Positions 31,201 through 37,477 of a DNA stretch of 64,000 nt are shown here, in pieces. Under the pieces are notes generated by a model. It was not told the DNA's origin. It searched no databases and saw only the letters and a program-made list of their open reading frames with translations. The stretch is from positions 1,736,737-1,800,736 of the forward strand of contig OZ251471.1 of assembly GCA_965242635.1 (NCBI GenBank), given 5' to 3'. Origin of the DNA: Bdellovibrionales bacterium. GTDB lineage: Bacteria; Bdellovibrionota; Bdellovibrionia; Bdellovibrionales; UBA1609. A program made the translations under genes and the position numbers. Every line of letters starts with the position of its first letter. Position 1 is the first letter of the stretch.

Positions 31201-32787
31201 ATGAACTTACTTATAACAGCGGATTCTCTTTGGGTTTTGGGGAGTGCTTTTGCCGGATTTTTACTTGGGGTTATGGTTTTTGTGGTGTATTTGCGGATCT
31301 TTCAGGAACGGCGAAAAAAATACCTGAAAAAAGAGATGAGCTTTATCATCAATCAGGCCCGGTCCAAGGCCATGCGAATGGAAAAGTCCGCCCTTTCCAG
31401 GGCAAAGGACACGGAGCGGCGGATGAAAAACAAAATGGACATGGAGGCCCGGCGGGAGAAAAAACAGCTGGAGGACATGAAATACCATGCAGAGCAAAAC
31501 AAGGTTCGCCTTGAGAGGGAGTGGAAGAAAAAGACAGAGGAAGTGGAAATCCAGGGGGAAGATCTCAAAAGGCAGAAGGAAAGAGCGGAATTCAAAGAGC
31601 AACAGCTGGAAAAGGCCACTCAAAAAGCGGAGCAAAAAATAGAGGAGCTGAACCAGATTATGGAGAAAGCGGTGGGCATGACGAAAGAGCAGGCACGGGA
31701 GGAGATGAGAAAAAACATGGAGGAGGAGATAAAAAAAGAGCTGGCCCCCCGGATAATCAGCATGGAAAAAGAAATGAAGAAGGAATCAGAGCAAAGGGCC
31801 AAAGTTTGGCTGTCCCGTGCTTTGGCACGGATGGCGGGGGAGGTCTCAACAGAGAGGACCACAGGCTCTTTACCTATAAAGGGGGAGGAGACCAAGGGCA
31901 AAATCATTGGCCGGGAGGGGCGGAATATTCGTGCTCTGGAATCAGCCTGTGGGGTGGATATTATCATCGATGAAAGTCAGGAGATTATTTTGGTGTCCTG
32001 TTTTGATTCTGTCCGGCGGGAGGTGGCTCTTCGGTCCATCCATCGTTTACTGGAGGAGGGGCGGGTGCACCCGGCCCGTATTGAGGAGGTGGTGGGAAAA
32101 ATCAAGCGGGACATATTCCATTCCATGGCCGAGGAGGGAAAGCGGATGTGTTTTGATTTGGGCTTGCATGATGTGAAGCCGGCTCTTATTGAGACCCTTG
32201 GCACTTTAAAATACCGGTTGATAGGGGGCAACAATGCTTTAAAGAGCAGTGTGGAGGTGGCTTATCTGGCGGGGCTTATAGCTGGTGAGCTGAATGTGGA
32301 GCAGAAGACAGCCAAAAGGGCTGGCCTGTTTCATGCCATTGGTTTGGGAGTGGATCACCGGGTGGAGGGCAGTTATTCCTCCGTGGGTGCAGACTATGCC
32401 AGAAAGCAGGGGGAGTCCCCGGCGGTGTGCCAGGCCATTCGTTGTCATCGTGGGGAAGTCCCTGCGGAATCCATTTTGGATCATATTGTGCAGTCGGCTT
32501 ATAATTTGTTTTATGAACGACCGGGGGCCAAGAGGGATGTTATGGAAAATTACATTACCCGTATGAAGGATATGGAGTCTGTTGCCAACAGTTTTGATGG
32601 GGTGATTCGAAGTTTTGCCATTCGGGCGGGAAAGGAGGTGCGTGTGTTGGTGGATAGTGGCAAAGTGACGGATGAGCAGGCTTTTATGTTGAGCCGGGAC
32701 ATTGCCGAAAAAATCAGCCGTGAGATGGACGAGCAGGGCCAGGTCAGCGTCCTCCGCGAATGCCGCATGGTCGAACAAGCCCGCTAA
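31201..32787 (+). CDS. rny: Ribonuclease Y
   Basis: N-terminal TM helix, long Lys/Glu coiled coil, KH domain (GKIIGREGRNIRALE), then an HD-type domain. Confidence 0.9.
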   Translation: MNLLITADSLWVLGSAFAGFLLGVMVFVVYLRIFQERRKKYLKKEMSFIINQARSKAMRMEKSALSRAKDTERRMKNKMDMEARREKKQLEDMKYHAEQNKVRLEREWKKKTEEVEIQGEDLKRQKERAEFKEQQLEKATQKAEQKIEELNQIMEKAVGMTKEQAREEMRKNMEEEIKKELAPRIISMEKEMKKESEQRAKVWLSRALARMAGEVSTERTTGSLPIKGEETKGKIIGREGRNIRALESACGVDIIIDESQEIILVSCFDSVRREVALRSIHRLLEEGRVHPARIEEVVGKIKRDIFHSMAEEGKRMCFDLGLHDVKPALIETLGTLKYRLIGGNNALKSSVEVAYLAGLIAGELNVEQKTAKRAGLFHAIGLGVDHRVEGSYSSVGADYARKQGESPAVCQAIRCHRGEVPAESILDHIVQSAYNLFYERPGAKRDVMENYITRMKDMESVANSFDGVIRSFAIRAGKEVRVLVDSGKVTDEQAFMLSRDIAEKISREMDEQGQVSVLRECRMVEQAR

Positions 32788-32821
32788 TCCCCGGGCCTGA
32801 ATCAAGACCACCTTGCCCTCA

Positions 32822-33246
32822 CCGTCATTCCCGCGAAAGCGGGAATCCAGAAAATCTACCTGACCACTGAATAGCCTTAATCAGTCATTCCCTTTTCTGC
32901 CGTCATTCCCGCGAAAAACTGTCATTCCCGCGAAAGCGGGAACCCACTCCTCTTTCCAAAAACTGTCATTCAATAAAGGCCATTTTGCCCTTTCCGCTTG
33001 TGCTATTGTCCCCTTTCGAACTGTCATTCCTTTCCAAAAACTGTCATTCCCGCGAAAGCGGGAATCCAGAAAATCTGCCTGATCACTGAATAGCCTTAAT
33101 CAATCATTCCCTTTTCTGCCGTCATTCCCTTTTCTGCCGTCATTCCCTTTTCTGCCGTCATTCCCTTTTCTGCCGTCATTCCCGCGAAAAACTGTCATTC
33201 CCGCGAAAGCGGGAATCCAGACCTTTCCCCCTGAAAGGGGGGGTCA
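32822..33246. repeat. Mosaic array of dRS3/NIME-like hairpin repeats (attcccgcgaaagcgggaat) plus an 18-bp tandem repeat
   Basis: Four full gtcattcccgcgaaagcggga(a/t)cca hairpin units (about 32824, 32921, 33045 and 33195). Many gtcattccc half-sites. An ~85-bp segment is duplicated (32824-32910 versus 33045-33130). tcattcccttttctgccg occurs 4 times in tandem (33104-33175). Terminal hairpin ccccctgaaaggggg. Confidence 0.85.
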
Positions 33247-33276
33247 AAGACAAACTTGCGACTTGGATTCTTGTAT

Positions 33277-33305
33277 TTGACAGCACTCTACTTTGCGGTT
33301 ATAGT
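33277..33305 (+). promoter_or_regulatory. Near-consensus sigma70 promoter (TTGACA, 17 nt, TATAGT) that would give a leaderless or very short-leader SIR2 mRNA
   Basis: ttgacagcactctactttgcggttatagt. The -10 element ends 10 nt before the ATG at 33316 and there is no SD between them. Confidence 0.55.
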
Positions 33306-33315
33306 GTTACACCTT

Positions 33316-36300
33316 ATGATTTACATCCCAAACGGCCCTGATATACCTGAAAAAGTTGAACAAGATCTCAGCAATGACAACTTGGTATTTTTTTGTGGAG
33401 CTGGCATTTCTTTTCAAAATGGCTTGCCCTTGTTCAAGGGCTTGGTGGAGCGAGTTTGCCAAAAGCTTGGTATCGATAGAGAGAAAGAGCCTCTTTTGGA
33501 AAAGGCTCATAAAAAAGAAAACTATGCCAGAATGCTGGATTTGATCGAAGGCAATCAATCTTTCTCAGTCACCAAAGAGAAGTTAAGAAAAAAAGTTATT
33601 GAAATTTTAAATCAATACAAAGGCAAGCCTGATATTCATAAAGCCCTTTTGGATCTGTCTGCCTCGCCGGGTAACAAGGGCCATCGATTGGTCACCACTA
33701 ATTTTGACAGGTTGTTTTTTAAAGCTGGTCTTAATAATGATCATGCTTTTTTTGATTCAGTCCCCAAATTAGTAGCCCTACCCAGAAAAGACACATGGCA
33801 ACATCTGACCTTCTTGCATGGTGTGATTGATGAAGAACATGATCCAGAAGGCAAGCATCTAATTCTCACTGGAAGCGATGTTGGCTTGGCTTATTTGCAT
33901 GATAATTGGGCCAGTCGTTTTATTATTCAGCTTTTTCAGGATTGGACAGTGCTGTTCATCGGATGTAGTGTAAACGATCCTGTAATGCAATATCTTTTTT
34001 TAGCTATTCATGAAAATCAAAAAAGAAGGCAAAATAGCAAAAAACAGACTGAAGCACATATCAATCACACAACAGATGAAAGTACAATTTATGCTTTTGT
34101 TGGATATAAAGATGGACAAAAAGAGTCAGCTAAAGATGAGTGGAGAGGTTTGGGTGTGAAACCTATCCTCTATAAAATTACAGGCAACAAAGACAATGAG
34201 AATCATTCACTGTTATACAATACTATCAAAAAGTGGGCTTGTTCAAAGCAAATAGGTTTACCCGGCAAAAAAGTCCAACTTGAAGAGCAATTAAGATTAC
34301 TCTATAAAGAAAAAGAGCGGGCTACTAAATCAAAAAGAACAAGATTATCTGACAGAAAAGTCCAACTTAAAGAGCAATTAAGATCACCTTATAAAAAAGA
34401 AACAGATAAAGAAAAAGCAAATAATGTTATTTCCTCTTTAAACATAGATGATAAATTGGCAAGATATTTTTCACAAATAGATTTTGCACCCGATCCAACA
34501 GAGAATAACAAATCATCTCCCAACAAACCAGTGGACATCAGCTGGTTAAGTGCTTTTGATAATTCTGAAAAGAGAGCAAACAAAATAAAATTTGCCCCTG
34601 CAAAAGAGAAAGAGGCTAAAAGCAGTACACTGGAAAAGTTAACAAAAAAAACCTCCCAAACAAATCCACCTCTATGGGAACCTTTATCACCATTGGAGGG
34701 GCATATAGCCCTTTGGCTCTGTAACCACTTGGATAAAAAAGAATTAGTCCACTGGGTCATAGATAAAGGTTGTATATTGCATCCAGGGTTTAAAAGCATG
34801 ATTCGATACACAATAGATAAAAGACCAATTGAAGGTATTCAAAAAACCGTTTTGAAAAAGAATATACAGCTTTTTTGGGAAACTGTTATTGACAATAATT
34901 ATTTAAAAAGTAGGTATTACTATGATACTGTATATGGTATAATAGAGGATCTGAATCGACAATACTCTCCGTTTAAAGCCAAGATTTTATTGGAATTATT
35001 GGAGCCTTACATCCATTTTCATACAGATTGGCTTTCAGATTCAGAATCGGATTTTACAAAAGAAGTTCGTAAACCTGAAATAAAAATCAATATAGACCAT
35101 TATCCCAGCATTCAGCTTAAAAATGAAAAAGTGCTTTCACATCATGCAGAAGATTTTTCGGATTTACTGAAAAAAGCAATGGAACTGGCCGAAAAGATTG
35201 AAATTATTAAAAATGGAGAAGATCATTTCTATATTATCAGGCCTTCTATTGAAGAGCAAAATATAACATATCATACTTGGATTTATCTCATTGATTTGAC
35301 AAGAGACAGTTTTGATATGGCTGTAAAGAAAGATAGACAGTTGGCTAATCTTTTGTTACAAAAATGGCAATATTATTCTTACTCTCTTTTTCATCGTCTT
35401 ATTCTTTATGCTGTGACCAAATACCCTGAATTGGATCAAAAAATAGCTCTTGATCTTTTAAGTAATGAACAACACCATGTTTTATGGTCCATATCCTGTC
35501 AAAATGAAGTCTTTAAATACTTAAAATCTGAAAAGTATTCTCACACTCAACAAAAAGCATTGTTGGATTTAATCATGAAAGGGCCACCCAACAGTTTATT
35601 CATGGATAATATTGATGATAAAATTATTACAGAATACAAAGAAAAAGATATCTATAAGAGGTTGAGTTGCTTAAAAGTGTCTGGCATATCCTTTCCTCAA
35701 GAAGTGGAAAAATATTATCATGAAATTCAATCCAAGTATTCCCTTCAAAACAAGGAAATACATGATTTTCCTTATTTCCATACTGGGTGGAGACCAAGAG
35801 ATATGAGACAGCAAAGATATAATCAATTAAGCTCTGAACAAATATACGATGATCTCAAAAAACCAATCCACCCTTTGGAACAAGAAGAAAAAAAGCAGGC
35901 TTTTCAATATTTAACTGAAGACCAGGTAGATAAAGCTTTTGAAGTGCTCTTAAAATTTTCAGATTCAGAGCATATTAGTGCTTCATATTGGGGAGCTTTT
36001 TGTAATGGTCTTTCCTCAGCAACAGATCAAAACAAAGCAAATGAATATTTTATAAAATCCATCAAAAAAATTGAAGGTTTTAATGATGAATTTATCACTG
36101 AATGTCTGTGGCCTTTGGTAGAATCTTTTGGATACAAAGGAGGACTGTTATACTATAAAGTAGACAAAGATTTTTTCAAAAGATGGTGGAAAAAATTATG
36201 GGATTTAAGTGTTAAAAAAGAACAAAAGCACCTGTCCAAAGAATCTTCCAATGTGAACATGAGGGCACATAACTCACTGTTGGGCAAATTAACAAATTCC

Positions 36301-37272
36301 ATAATTCAGTTTTTATGGAGTCATTTTGATGAAAAAACAATTCTAAAAAATGGCCAGATACCAGATGGTGTAAGGGAGTATTTAAGTATTATTATAACAC
36401 AGGGAGCAAAAACAAATCCAGCCGTTATGTTTCATTTTGGAACATATTTATTCACTCTTTGGTTTTTGGACAAAGAATGGACAAAAAAACATATAAAACC
36501 TTTAATGAATTTTGACAAACATAAAAATATATGCAAATCTCTATGGACAGGATATTTCTATCATGTAGAAGTCAATCCTGATTTTTTGTCTTATTTTAAA
36601 AAAGAATTATTACAAATGTTTTTAAATAGTCAGTATTTATATGCAAAAGAATCAGAAGACACACACAAATCAAATGTATTGGAATCTGTCACAGAGCTGT
36701 TTCTTATTGCAACTGGTGGCAAGTGGTTTGAAAACATTTTTACAAATGATGAAACACAGAATCTAAAACAAAAATTTATCTTGAATACAGATATTTTGGA
36801 ATCCTTATCCAGACAAATATGGGTTCTTTTAAAAGATTCTAAAGAAAAATCTGGCATTTTATGGGATGAAAAAATAAAACCTTGGATTGAGCAATTTTGG
36901 CCAGCTCAGAAAAACATGAAAACTCTTGGAATAGCTCAAGATTTATCTTGTGCTTTATTGTATTGTGGGGATAAATTTCCGGAAGCTCTTGGAGTATTAG
37001 GAGAACATATCAAAGGAGTTATGGCCAAAAATCACTATGAAATTTTATTTTTAATAAATGGAGACATGGGTGACGATAAAAAAAGATTTGACTCTACTTT
37101 TGACTACCCTCATGATTTTCTAAACCTTTTAAACTGGAATTTTCCACAAGATGAAACCATATACAGTCATTATAGTGAAATGTTGCAAGAAATATTAAAC
37201 AAAATAAAAAATAAACATCCGGGCATAGAAGAAGATGAAAAATACATCGATCTCGAAGAAAAACTGTCTTGA
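33316..37272 (+). CDS. Large SIR2-domain fusion protein (~1318 aa), DSR1-like defence-associated sirtuin
   Basis: The N-terminal ~300 aa carry VFFCGAGISFQNGLP, VTTNFDRLF and TFLHGVI (SIR2 NAD-binding and catalytic motifs). About 1000 aa of unrecognised, helix-rich sequence follow. The ATG at 33316 is preferred over the track's TTG at 33256. Confidence 0.8.
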   Translation: MIYIPNGPDIPEKVEQDLSNDNLVFFCGAGISFQNGLPLFKGLVERVCQKLGIDREKEPLLEKAHKKENYARMLDLIEGNQSFSVTKEKLRKKVIEILNQYKGKPDIHKALLDLSASPGNKGHRLVTTNFDRLFFKAGLNNDHAFFDSVPKLVALPRKDTWQHLTFLHGVIDEEHDPEGKHLILTGSDVGLAYLHDNWASRFIIQLFQDWTVLFIGCSVNDPVMQYLFLAIHENQKRRQNSKKQTEAHINHTTDESTIYAFVGYKDGQKESAKDEWRGLGVKPILYKITGNKDNENHSLLYNTIKKWACSKQIGLPGKKVQLEEQLRLLYKEKERATKSKRTRLSDRKVQLKEQLRSPYKKETDKEKANNVISSLNIDDKLARYFSQIDFAPDPTENNKSSPNKPVDISWLSAFDNSEKRANKIKFAPAKEKEAKSSTLEKLTKKTSQTNPPLWEPLSPLEGHIALWLCNHLDKKELVHWVIDKGCILHPGFKSMIRYTIDKRPIEGIQKTVLKKNIQLFWETVIDNNYLKSRYYYDTVYGIIEDLNRQYSPFKAKILLELLEPYIHFHTDWLSDSESDFTKEVRKPEIKINIDHYPSIQLKNEKVLSHHAEDFSDLLKKAMELAEKIEIIKNGEDHFYIIRPSIEEQNITYHTWIYLIDLTRDSFDMAVKKDRQLANLLLQKWQYYSYSLFHRLILYAVTKYPELDQKIALDLLSNEQHHVLWSISCQNEVFKYLKSEKYSHTQQKALLDLIMKGPPNSLFMDNIDDKIITEYKEKDIYKRLSCLKVSGISFPQEVEKYYHEIQSKYSLQNKEIHDFPYFHTGWRPRDMRQQRYNQLSSEQIYDDLKKPIHPLEQEEKKQAFQYLTEDQVDKAFEVLLKFSDSEHISASYWGAFCNGLSSATDQNKANEYFIKSIKKIEGFNDEFITECLWPLVESFGYKGGLLYYKVDKDFFKRWWKKLWDLSVKKEQKHLSKESSNVNMRAHNSLLGKLTNSIIQFLWSHFDEKTILKNGQIPDGVREYLSIIITQGAKTNPAVMFHFGTYLFTLWFLDKEWTKKHIKPLMNFDKHKNICKSLWTGYFYHVEVNPDFLSYFKKELLQMFLNSQYLYAKESEDTHKSNVLESVTELFLIATGGKWFENIFTNDETQNLKQKFILNTDILESLSRQIWVLLKDSKEKSGILWDEKIKPWIEQFWPAQKNMKTLGIAQDLSCALLYCGDKFPEALGVLGEHIKGVMAKNHYEILFLINGDMGDDKKRFDSTFDYPHDFLNLLNWNFPQDETIYSHYSEMLQEILNKIKNKHPGIEEDEKYIDLEEKLS

Positions 37273-37368
37273 ACCAAACTGGTTTGAGGCAAATTTTGCC
37301 TTCTGAAAAAGGTGCCACTTGGAAGTTTTTTCCTATAAAGAAAATTGAGATCCAAAAATTTCATGCCC
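37272..37368 (-). repeat. Reverse-oriented copy of the MITE-like element, between the convergent SIR2 and GmrSD genes
   Basis: aaccaaactggttt[gaggcaaattttgccttc]tgaaaaaggtgccacttggaagttttttcc... aligns with the reverse complement of 10795-10880 and has a small hairpin insertion. Confidence 0.7.
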
Positions 37369-37477
37369 TTGCTCCCGATCGGAGGTCAAACCAGTATAAA
37401 ATCTAAACCCCTATTTTTTTATAGACAGGCGGTGAATCGGTCCTGAAAGTCGGACAGTTTACCTGGAATAAGTTTGT

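Follow-up and report, generated by a model that had tools for sequence, protein, structure and literature searches.

A forward-strand open reading frame spanning positions 33256–37272 of the window (the whole 64,000-nucleotide stretch of contig analyzed here) encodes an apparent SIR2-containing protein of the DSR1 family, with a long helical C-terminal region (Table 1). The mechanical reading frame comprises 1338 codons and opens at TTG 33256. The preliminary description assigned a 1318-residue product to this frame; the frame is real, but 1318 residues are obtained by counting from ATG 33316, which the sequence indicates to be the likely start, with TTG 33256 merely opening the mechanical frame. 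The start is placed at the ATG because the N-termini of homologues agree with it and because a promoter-like site lies just before it. This site, which is identified by consensus match only, is the joint best in the region 32700–40500, where the total number of such sites is not above that found in shuffled sequences; it ends 10 nt before the ATG, implying a very short leader or none.

Table 1. Positions of the DSR1-family gene, its domains and nearby features in the window
Feature	Position	Strand	Basis or remark
rny	31201–32787		Immediate upstream neighbour of DSR1-family gene
Promoter-like site, TTGACA-17 nt-TATAGT	33277–33305	+	Consensus scan, 11/12 matches
DSR1-family gene	33316–37272	+	1318 aa plus stop
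SIR2 (NADase-type) domain, aa 1–297	33316–34206	+	Pfam SIR2_2, alignment, AlphaFold2, Foldseek
Catalytic-type Asn129	33700–33702	+	Invariant in 85 sequences
Catalytic-type His168	33817–33819	+	Invariant in 85 sequences
Long connecting helix between SIR2 domain and sensor, aa 298–354	34207–34377	+	DSSP on model
In-frame tandem duplication, 87 bp (29 aa)	34243–34401	+	Copies 34243–34314 and 34330–34401
DSR1-type C-terminal sensor domain, all-alpha solenoid, aa 365–1318	34408–37269	+	PADLOC, NCBIfam, AlphaFold2
Terminator-like hairpin	37265–37291	+	Consensus scan; 12-pair stem, overlaps stop codon; weak, T tract poor
tolB	42314–43669	−	Not direct neighbour

The gene is AT-rich, as had been noted (GC 0.33 versus 0.46 in the rest of the window to the left and 0.42 to the right), and lies in a small, multi-gene, low-GC defence island. 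The flanks were initially given as rny and tolB. The former is indeed immediately upstream, but a GmrSD-like gene, which is split by an in-frame TAA at 39122–39124, an Rpn-family nuclease (a PD-(D/E)XK protein) and a small methyltransferase stand before the latter. Similarly, the description of the locus as a single-gene system holds for the DSR1-family gene itself, for which no conserved partner gene is observed, but not for its setting within the island. As for marks of a mobile element, neither a tRNA nor an Rfam match was found, no direct repeats flank the island, and, the Rpn-family protein apart, no integrase or transposase was found among the island ORFs scanned. The neighbouring ORFs gave no HerA or ATPase match, and no ThsB/TIR or KomB-like gene is present among the neighbours.

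The SIR2 signatures claimed for the N-terminal ~300 residues are all present: GAGIS, the NAD-binding loop, at residues 28–32 (33397–33411), TTNFD at 127–131 and FLHG at 166–169. SIR2 profiles match the protein, with Pfam SIR2_2 covering residues 125–284 (E 7e-17), and the proposed catalytic residues are retained in an 85-sequence SIR2 alignment, in which G28, G30, S32, N129, D131 and H168 are invariant and N112 of ThsA is aligned with N129. The AlphaFold2 model of the domain (pLDDT 89.9) superimposes in Foldseek on the SIR2 domains of ThsA, KomC and DSR2 (E 1e-9 to 1e-7, TM up to 0.73 on the target), and defence NADases account for all of its best structural matches. The SIR2 fold is common to deacetylases, and a housekeeping sirtuin, i.e. 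a protein deacylase or ADP-ribosyltransferase carrying a large regulatory scaffold and having no link to phage defence, would also display it. Such an assignment is extremely improbable given these structural matches, the assignment by Pfam to SIR2_2 only, with classical Sir2 (PF02146) unmatched at E <= 0.01, the low GC content, variable location and defence neighbours of the gene, and the full-length match to Dsr1 models described below.

The C-terminal ~1000 residues, for which Pfam has no model and which had been reported as matching nothing, are matched end to end by the Dsr1 models of both PADLOC and NCBIfam. Searches against DSR1/DSR2 profiles bear out the proposal of a DSR1-like SIR2 fusion with a C-terminal sensor: the whole protein matches PADLOC Dsr1 (PDLC04167, E 1.5e-137; PDLC02183, E 4.7e-116), and residues 321–1318 alone do so with E 2.4e-62 in a collinear alignment covering profile positions 296–1236 of 1248, each third of the C-terminal part also matching separately. 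NCBIfam NF041818, "anti-phage defense-associated sirtuin Dsr1", gives 516.5 bits (E 1.6e-154), its best stretch being residues 462–1315 (profile positions 413–1260 of 1263), and BLASTP against an NCBI-named Dsr1 (P0080) aligns residues 3–1225 at 25% identity (E 4e-97). Identity to canonical Dsr1 sensors is ~18–23%, with near-invariant Trp, Pro and Gly positions in common. A phmmer search with residues 440–1318 retrieved 912 cluster representatives, and in the top 150 almost all full-size representatives match at approximately residues 380–1240. The helix-rich character anticipated for this region is evident in its AlphaFold2 model, which is all-helical with ~55 helices (pLDDT 86.6). Sequence searches of the PDB, whether started from the protein or from the clade profile, returned the SIR2 domains of ThsA, KomC and USG only, with nothing for the C-terminal domain and no DSR1 or Avs7 entry, and a fold search of viral predicted structures gave no match at E < 0.01.

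As judged from these profile and sequence matches, the C-terminal ~1000 residues are the DSR1 family's own sensor domain, which is already described and not novel, and the gene product is very probably an antiphage protein that acts on its own, divergent from other members of the DSR1 (defence-associated sirtuin 1) family but of full length. The NF041818 score is far below the equivalog cut-off of 1400 bits, implying that functional equivalence to characterized DSR1 proteins is not guaranteed; by homology and architecture the protein is a family member outside the equivalog set, and is filed here as a divergent subfamily.

The protein belongs to a distinct clade, in which identities are 36–64%, against at most 28% beyond it. 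Near-full-length relatives in reference genomes, which were found with the clade alignment and not in a single-protein scan, all derive from Bdellovibrionales MAGs (8/8). In a further relative genome, L021, only a 51-residue remnant of such a gene is present. Seven clade homologues occupy seven different chromosomal sites with no common neighbour, and six of the seven lie near restriction-modification, Rpn/PDDEXK, AbiTii, OLD-like AAA_15/21 or Schlafen-AlbA genes. As in the window, the gene has a lower GC content than its flanks in all of the homologue loci checked (10/10). No synteny of the window flanks was detected with 26 related loci, in which Rpn paralogues alone recur. Homologues are thus found at variable sites, mostly beside restriction-modification or other defence genes, and not in the housekeeping contexts that the preliminary description had considered contrary to a defence role.

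The internal duplication noted previously at about 34265–34400 is real, and is an in-frame tandem duplication that lengthens the helix connecting the SIR2 domain and the sensor. The copies are 78% identical over 72 nt with a spacing of 87 nt, a divergence that suggests an old and tolerated event. An assembly artefact was ruled out as its source, the copies being only 78% identical and in frame. The 21 other clade members aligned each have a single copy and 29 residues fewer, making the duplication unique to this protein; it could alter or impair sensor-effector coupling. The gene might be viewed as a decaying or inactivated relic, intact in sequence but compromised in function, e.g. by the helix duplication, like the neighbouring GmrSD gene. 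The in-frame TAA in that gene, the restriction of the duplication to this one protein and the remnant in L021 would fit such decay. We nevertheless regard it as highly unlikely: the 1318 codons are uninterrupted, all of the invariant residues of the SIR2 alignment are kept, a promoter-like site lies directly upstream, and the duplication, in frame and with copies that have diverged to 78% identity, is modelled by AlphaFold2 (DSSP assignment) as part of one continuous helix.

Members of the DSR1 family are single-protein bacterial antiviral systems that destroy NAD+ upon phage infection. NAD+ depletion by DSR1 has been observed on phi29 infection (bioRxiv 10.1101/2021.12.14.472415), and the toxicity of E. 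coli Dsr1 is lost when its NADase domain is disrupted (PMC12803255 / 10.64898/2026.01.04.697583, a 2026 preprint). The same preprint reports that the E. coli Dsr1 sensor is common to Avs7 and that the major capsid protein of phage ZL19 is the unique activator (PMC12803255 / 10.64898/2026.01.04.697583). By extension, in the uninfected cell the C-terminal alpha-solenoid of ~950 residues would hold the SIR2 domain inactive; upon infection the sensor would bind a phage protein, most likely the major capsid protein by analogy with E. coli Dsr1, and the SIR2 domain, presumed to be an active NADase, would hydrolyse NAD+ to ADP-ribose and nicotinamide. The resulting loss of NAD+ would starve the phage, and possibly the cell, such that phage propagation is blocked.

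With ~25% identity to canonical Dsr1, and ~20% in the sensor, a different trigger is quite possible, and the clade may retain the same family membership and NADase output while responding to some phage component that is not the HK97-type major capsid protein reported to activate E. coli Dsr1. A capsid protein with another fold would be one example, and a structural protein of some other kind a second. In addition to the low sensor identity, the clear gap between within-clade and outside identities and the score under the equivalog cut-off are consistent with this possibility. Specificity also varies within the family, as is apparent from the activity of EcDsr1 against only a few Drexlerviridae (PMC12803255) and that of DSR1 from a Bacillus background against phi29 (10.1101/2021.12.14.472415). 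However, the alignment is collinear over the whole sensor and near-invariant Trp, Pro and Gly positions are held in common, which argues for conservation of the binding architecture, and we consider an alternative trigger a substantial possibility but not the probable one. Somewhat more doubtful is the fuller proposal that the Bdellovibrionales-associated clade constitutes a functionally distinct DSR1 subfamily whose diverged sensor recognizes a phage component other than the HK97-type capsid protein; this component might be peculiar to phages that infect predatory bacteria or bacteria with small genomes. In the present protein, the longer helix between SIR2 domain and sensor might, in addition, alter the way in which binding activates the NADase.

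Under the preferred assignment, that of a divergent DSR1 protein, none of these findings changes the known mechanism. The clade adds to the family a divergent branch, ~25% identical to the characterized proteins, whose source is a little-studied group of Bdellovibrionales-like bacteria with ~1.3–3 Mb genomes, and indicates that small genomes such as these retain predicted NAD+-depleting immunity in compact defence islands. It also provides a distant comparison point for mapping the truly conserved sensor residues, which are candidates for the trigger-binding surface, while the natural 29-residue helix duplication offers a built-in means of probing sensor-SIR2 coupling.

Among known SIR2-containing defence systems, SIR2-HerA differs from the present locus, where no HerA-like ATPase gene is adjacent. 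Of the solved SIR2 domains, those of ThsA (Thoeris) and KomC/HAM-SIR2 are closest in both sequence and fold, but these proteins employ a SLOG domain or partner proteins and small-molecule signals, and the PADLOC ThsA models match residues 12–241 only. DSR2 of Bacillus subtilis, which senses the phage tail tube protein, likewise carries a SIR2 NADase and a large helical sensor on a single polypeptide, and the SIR2 folds are very similar (Foldseek E ~1e-8, TM up to 0.73 on the DSR2 SIR2 fragment). The likeness of the C-terminal region to the DSR2 tail-tube-binding domain, which had been suggested for comparison by AlphaFold, does not extend beyond that of a generic alpha-solenoid: PADLOC Dsr2 gave no match at E <= 0.01, and when the fold of the C-terminal model was compared with the PDB, the top 50 matches were generic HEAT/ARM solenoids (such as karyopherins and SF3B1; TM 0.2–0.34) with no DSR2 chain among them. 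These observations imply that the two sensors are not demonstrably homologous.

Avs7, a STAND NTPase whose TPR sensor recognizes capsid, may be related through the C-terminal region, the Dsr1 sensor being reported to be homologous to that of Avs7 and to respond to the same trigger, the major capsid protein (PMC12803255). The sensor described here is homologous to Dsr1 sensors, the tie to Avs7 coming from the literature only, and the all-alpha solenoid of the model is consistent with an Avs7-type sensor. Other effectors joined to the same sensor were sought in the top 150 phmmer representatives, where the proteins of unusual length, which are probably truncated, have SIR2_2 or no Pfam domain and so provide no independent link to Avs7. 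In contrast to Avs7, no STAND NTPase domain is present; Pfam identifies SIR2_2 only, and a continuous helical solenoid follows the SIR2 domain.

The closest counterpart is DSR1 itself (PADLOC Dsr1, NF041818; EcDsr1, WP_029488749.1). The protein differs in its identity of ~25%, its score of 516 versus 1400 bits, its placement in a separate clade and its own 29-residue duplication, but shares with DSR1 the SIR2_2 NADase-type domain with conserved Asn and His, the connecting helix, the alpha-solenoid sensor of ~900 residues, and the organization as a stand-alone gene in defence-island contexts.

The C-terminal ~1000 aa of the DSR1-like protein, for which Pfam gives no match and which the preliminary description took to match nothing, are matched by family-specific Dsr1 models. 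PADLOC Dsr1 PDLC04167 matches the whole protein with an E value of 1.5e-137 and aa 321-1318 alone with one of 2.4e-62, collinearly over profile positions 296-1236 of 1248; with aa 321-1318 cut in thirds, separate matches are obtained (E 3e-22, 8e-12, and 3e-20). NCBIfam NF041818 ('anti-phage defense-associated sirtuin Dsr1') scores 516.5 bits, far under its equivalog cut-off of 1400 bits, with the best stretch pairing aa 462-1315 with profile positions 413-1260 of 1263, and P0080, a Sulfuricaulis protein that NCBI names Dsr1, is 25% identical across aa 3-1225 (E 4e-97). A phmmer search of 1.84 billion cluster representatives with aa 440-1318 alone and a limit of E <= 0.001 found 912 proteins; among the 150 best, almost all, barring shorter, truncated-looking ones, have the DSR1 layout (~1200 aa, match at residues ~380-1240). 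Because of these four sets of matches, sequence comparison identifies the region as the DSR1 family's own sensor domain.

The AlphaFold2 model of the C-terminal region is an all-alpha solenoid of ~55 helices (pLDDT 86.6, pTM 0.71), in keeping with the helix-rich character noticed earlier. The only PDB structures similar to it are generic HEAT/ARM solenoids (such as karyopherins and SF3B1; TM 0.2-0.34). The suggested comparison with the DSR2 tail-tube-binding domain revealed no specific similarity, with no DSR2 chain among the top 50 PDB fold matches. A fold search against viral predicted structures gave no match, and no DSR1 or Avs7 structure is detectable in the PDB by sequence.

The three SIR2 motifs reported for the N-terminal domain are all present in the translation, and across 85 aligned sequences, some of them proteins NCBI names Dsr1, there is no variation at G28, G30, S32, N129, D131, or H168. 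The protein has no Pfam match to the classical Sir2 deacetylase family. In a phmmer alignment with ThsA (6lhx), TTNYD of ThsA pairs with TTNFD, placing N129 opposite ThsA N112, the usual target of mutations meant to inactivate that protein. The best PDB fold matches of an AlphaFold2 model of aa 1-470 (pLDDT 89.9) are defence NADases throughout (E 1e-9 to 1e-7), the NADase domains of ThsA, KomC/HAM-SIR2, and DSR2 being the nearest folds, with TM values of up to 0.73 on an isolated DSR2 SIR2 fragment.

The gene lies on the plus strand within a single ORF, 33256-37272, as described previously; the start assigned to it did not hold, as the 1318 aa count from ATG 33316 (N-terminus MIYIPNGPDIPE...), the position at which the N-termini of 21 homologues align, and TTG 33256 only opens the ORF mechanically (1338 codons). 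A promoter-like site ends 10 nt before this ATG (see table). The short internal duplication is real: its copies, 78% identical at a spacing of 87 nt (29 codons), sit in the helix after the SIR2 domain, modelled as one helix (aa 298-354), and the segment is single-copy in 21/21 other aligned members of the clade (relatives 36-64% identical to the protein). Because the copies have diverged, an assembly artefact is ruled out, and the duplication is not very recent either.

Upstream, the intergenic stretch from rny to the gene (32821-33224) contains a dense nested repeat array, in which hairpin-forming GTCATTCCCGCGAAAGCGGGAA occurs in four exact copies and nowhere else in the 64-kb window, a 90-nt unit recurs at a spacing of 219 nt, and 4.4 copies of an 18-nt unit, TCATTCCCTTTTCTGCCG, stand in tandem. 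The array hairpins score terminator-like on the minus strand.

Coordinates of features in the window, the DSR1-like protein (aa) and homologue loci (L, locus positions)
Feature	Position	Strand	Remark
Promoter-like site TTGACA-17-TATAGT	33277-33305		joint best consensus match in region
SIR2 motif GAGIS	aa 28-32
SIR2 motif TTNFD	aa 127-131
SIR2 motif FLHG	aa 166-169
SIR2_2 domain	aa 125-284		Pfam, E 7e-17
Internal duplication	34243-34314 and 34330-34401
12-pair hairpin	overlapping stop codon of DSR1-like gene
GmrSD-family (DUF262/DUF1524 + DUF5655) type IV restriction-like gene	37478-39622	-	Pfam GmrSD_N, GmrSD_C, DUF5655
27-nt inverted repeat	39929-39955 / 40123-40149
Near-perfect 24-nt palindrome	40186-40239
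Rpn-family PD-(D/E)XK nuclease	40401-41387	+
N6-methyltransferase-like ORF	41419-42153	+	244 aa, TTG start; Pfam N6_Mtase, PADLOC MTase_II
tolB	42314-43669		after methyltransferase-like ORF
DprA-like gene, L022	14140-15207
DprA-like gene, L023	14171-15133
DprA-like gene, L001	1219-2157

The AT-richness noted for the gene is borne out by its GC content of 0.33, versus 0.46 and 0.42 in the window to its left and right. The low-GC stretch runs from ~33500 to ~40500 and, with the ~1.7 kb up to tolB, also holds the GmrSD-family, Rpn-family, and methyltransferase-like genes; rny, tolB, and subtilases are carried in the window as well. The island shows no tRNA, no match in Rfam, and no direct repeats on its flanks. 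The GmrSD-family gene consists of two same-frame ORFs, 39622-39125 (165 aa) and 39061-37478 (527 aa), parted by one in-frame TAA (39122-39124) in a stretch rich in A/T homopolymers; both align to a single PADLOC model, at its positions 1-152 and 175-542, and either the gene is a pseudogene or the split is an error of sequencing. The methyltransferase-like ORF is only a partial match (N6_Mtase profile positions 9-63 of 311), and no gene was recognised as its restriction partner; possibly it is a methylase that is orphaned or truncated. The ~780 bp between the GmrSD-like and Rpn genes (39623-40400) contain an inverted repeat and a palindrome, no convincing ORF, and no Rfam match.

Seven clade homologues occupy seven different chromosomal sites without a conserved neighbour, as expected of the single-gene system proposed earlier. 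Defence or restriction genes lie nearby in six of these loci (neighbours include type I and II restriction-modification, OLD-like AAA_15/21, AbiTii, Schlafen-AlbA, and Rpn or Transposase_31), and homologue GC is below that of the flanks in 10/10 loci checked. Because of the variable sites, the lack of a conserved neighbour, the defence neighbours, and the low GC, the gene looks like a defence gene that works alone and moves horizontally. Rpn-family PD-(D/E)XK or Transposase_31 genes repeatedly adjoin DSR1-like genes in several Bdellovibrionales MAGs (loci L001/L007, L022, L024), with three copies inside 24 kb at L001; a C-terminal tail of ~35 aa is conserved even across otherwise dissimilar copies, and these genes may take part in the shuffling of islands. 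The two closest homologues (64% and 58% identity) each have a DprA-like (DNA_processg_A) gene as their direct downstream neighbour, and a third has one 8 kb upstream, but none adjoins the gene in the window; this pattern may point to a site where insertions once clustered, and less to a functional partnership.

Homologues fall into two groups, ~54 at 36-64% identity, most aligned nearly full length and some entries shorter or truncated, and, after a gap, canonical Dsr1 at 28% or less. All eight near-full-length relatives in the reference-genome collection are from 'Bdellovibrionales bacterium' MAGs of 1.3-3.0 Mb. On a Bdellovibrionales MAG chromosome, OZ241921.1 (L021 10001-10153), just a remnant matching the first 51 aa of the protein is found (67% identity), which suggests that a DSR1-like gene was lost there. 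With Dsr1 models matching, SIR2_2 detected, N129 and H168 invariant, and homologues at variable, mostly defence-rich rather than housekeeping sites, the preliminary reading as a DSR1-like SIR2 fusion was essentially right.

When expressed in B. subtilis, DSR1 protected against phi29; NAD+ was depleted transiently, and the culture did not collapse (bioRxiv 10.1101/2021.12.14.472415). A 2026 preprint describes the Dsr1 sensor as homologous to that of the STAND protein Avs7 and, in AlphaFold3 models, as a bilobed, sharply bent repeat structure; it also reports the phage ZL19 major capsid protein as the unique activator of cell death mediated by E. coli Dsr1 (EcDsr1), and a loss of this toxicity when the NADase domain is disrupted (PMC12803255 / 10.64898/2026.01.04.697583). 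The protein in the window belongs to the DSR1 family and has its architecture and conserved catalytic residues; we infer its NADase activity, autoinhibition, trigger, and outcome for the cell. By homology, its solenoid would most likely sense a protein of the phage, with capsid protein the probable one, and sensing would most likely lead to NAD+ hydrolysis. Since the sensor is only ~20% identical to characterised proteins, a trigger different from theirs is given an appreciable, if lesser, chance against the shared kind of trigger predicted by homology. The gene is a new, divergent member of the DSR1 family, with a C-terminal domain already known as the DSR1 sensor.
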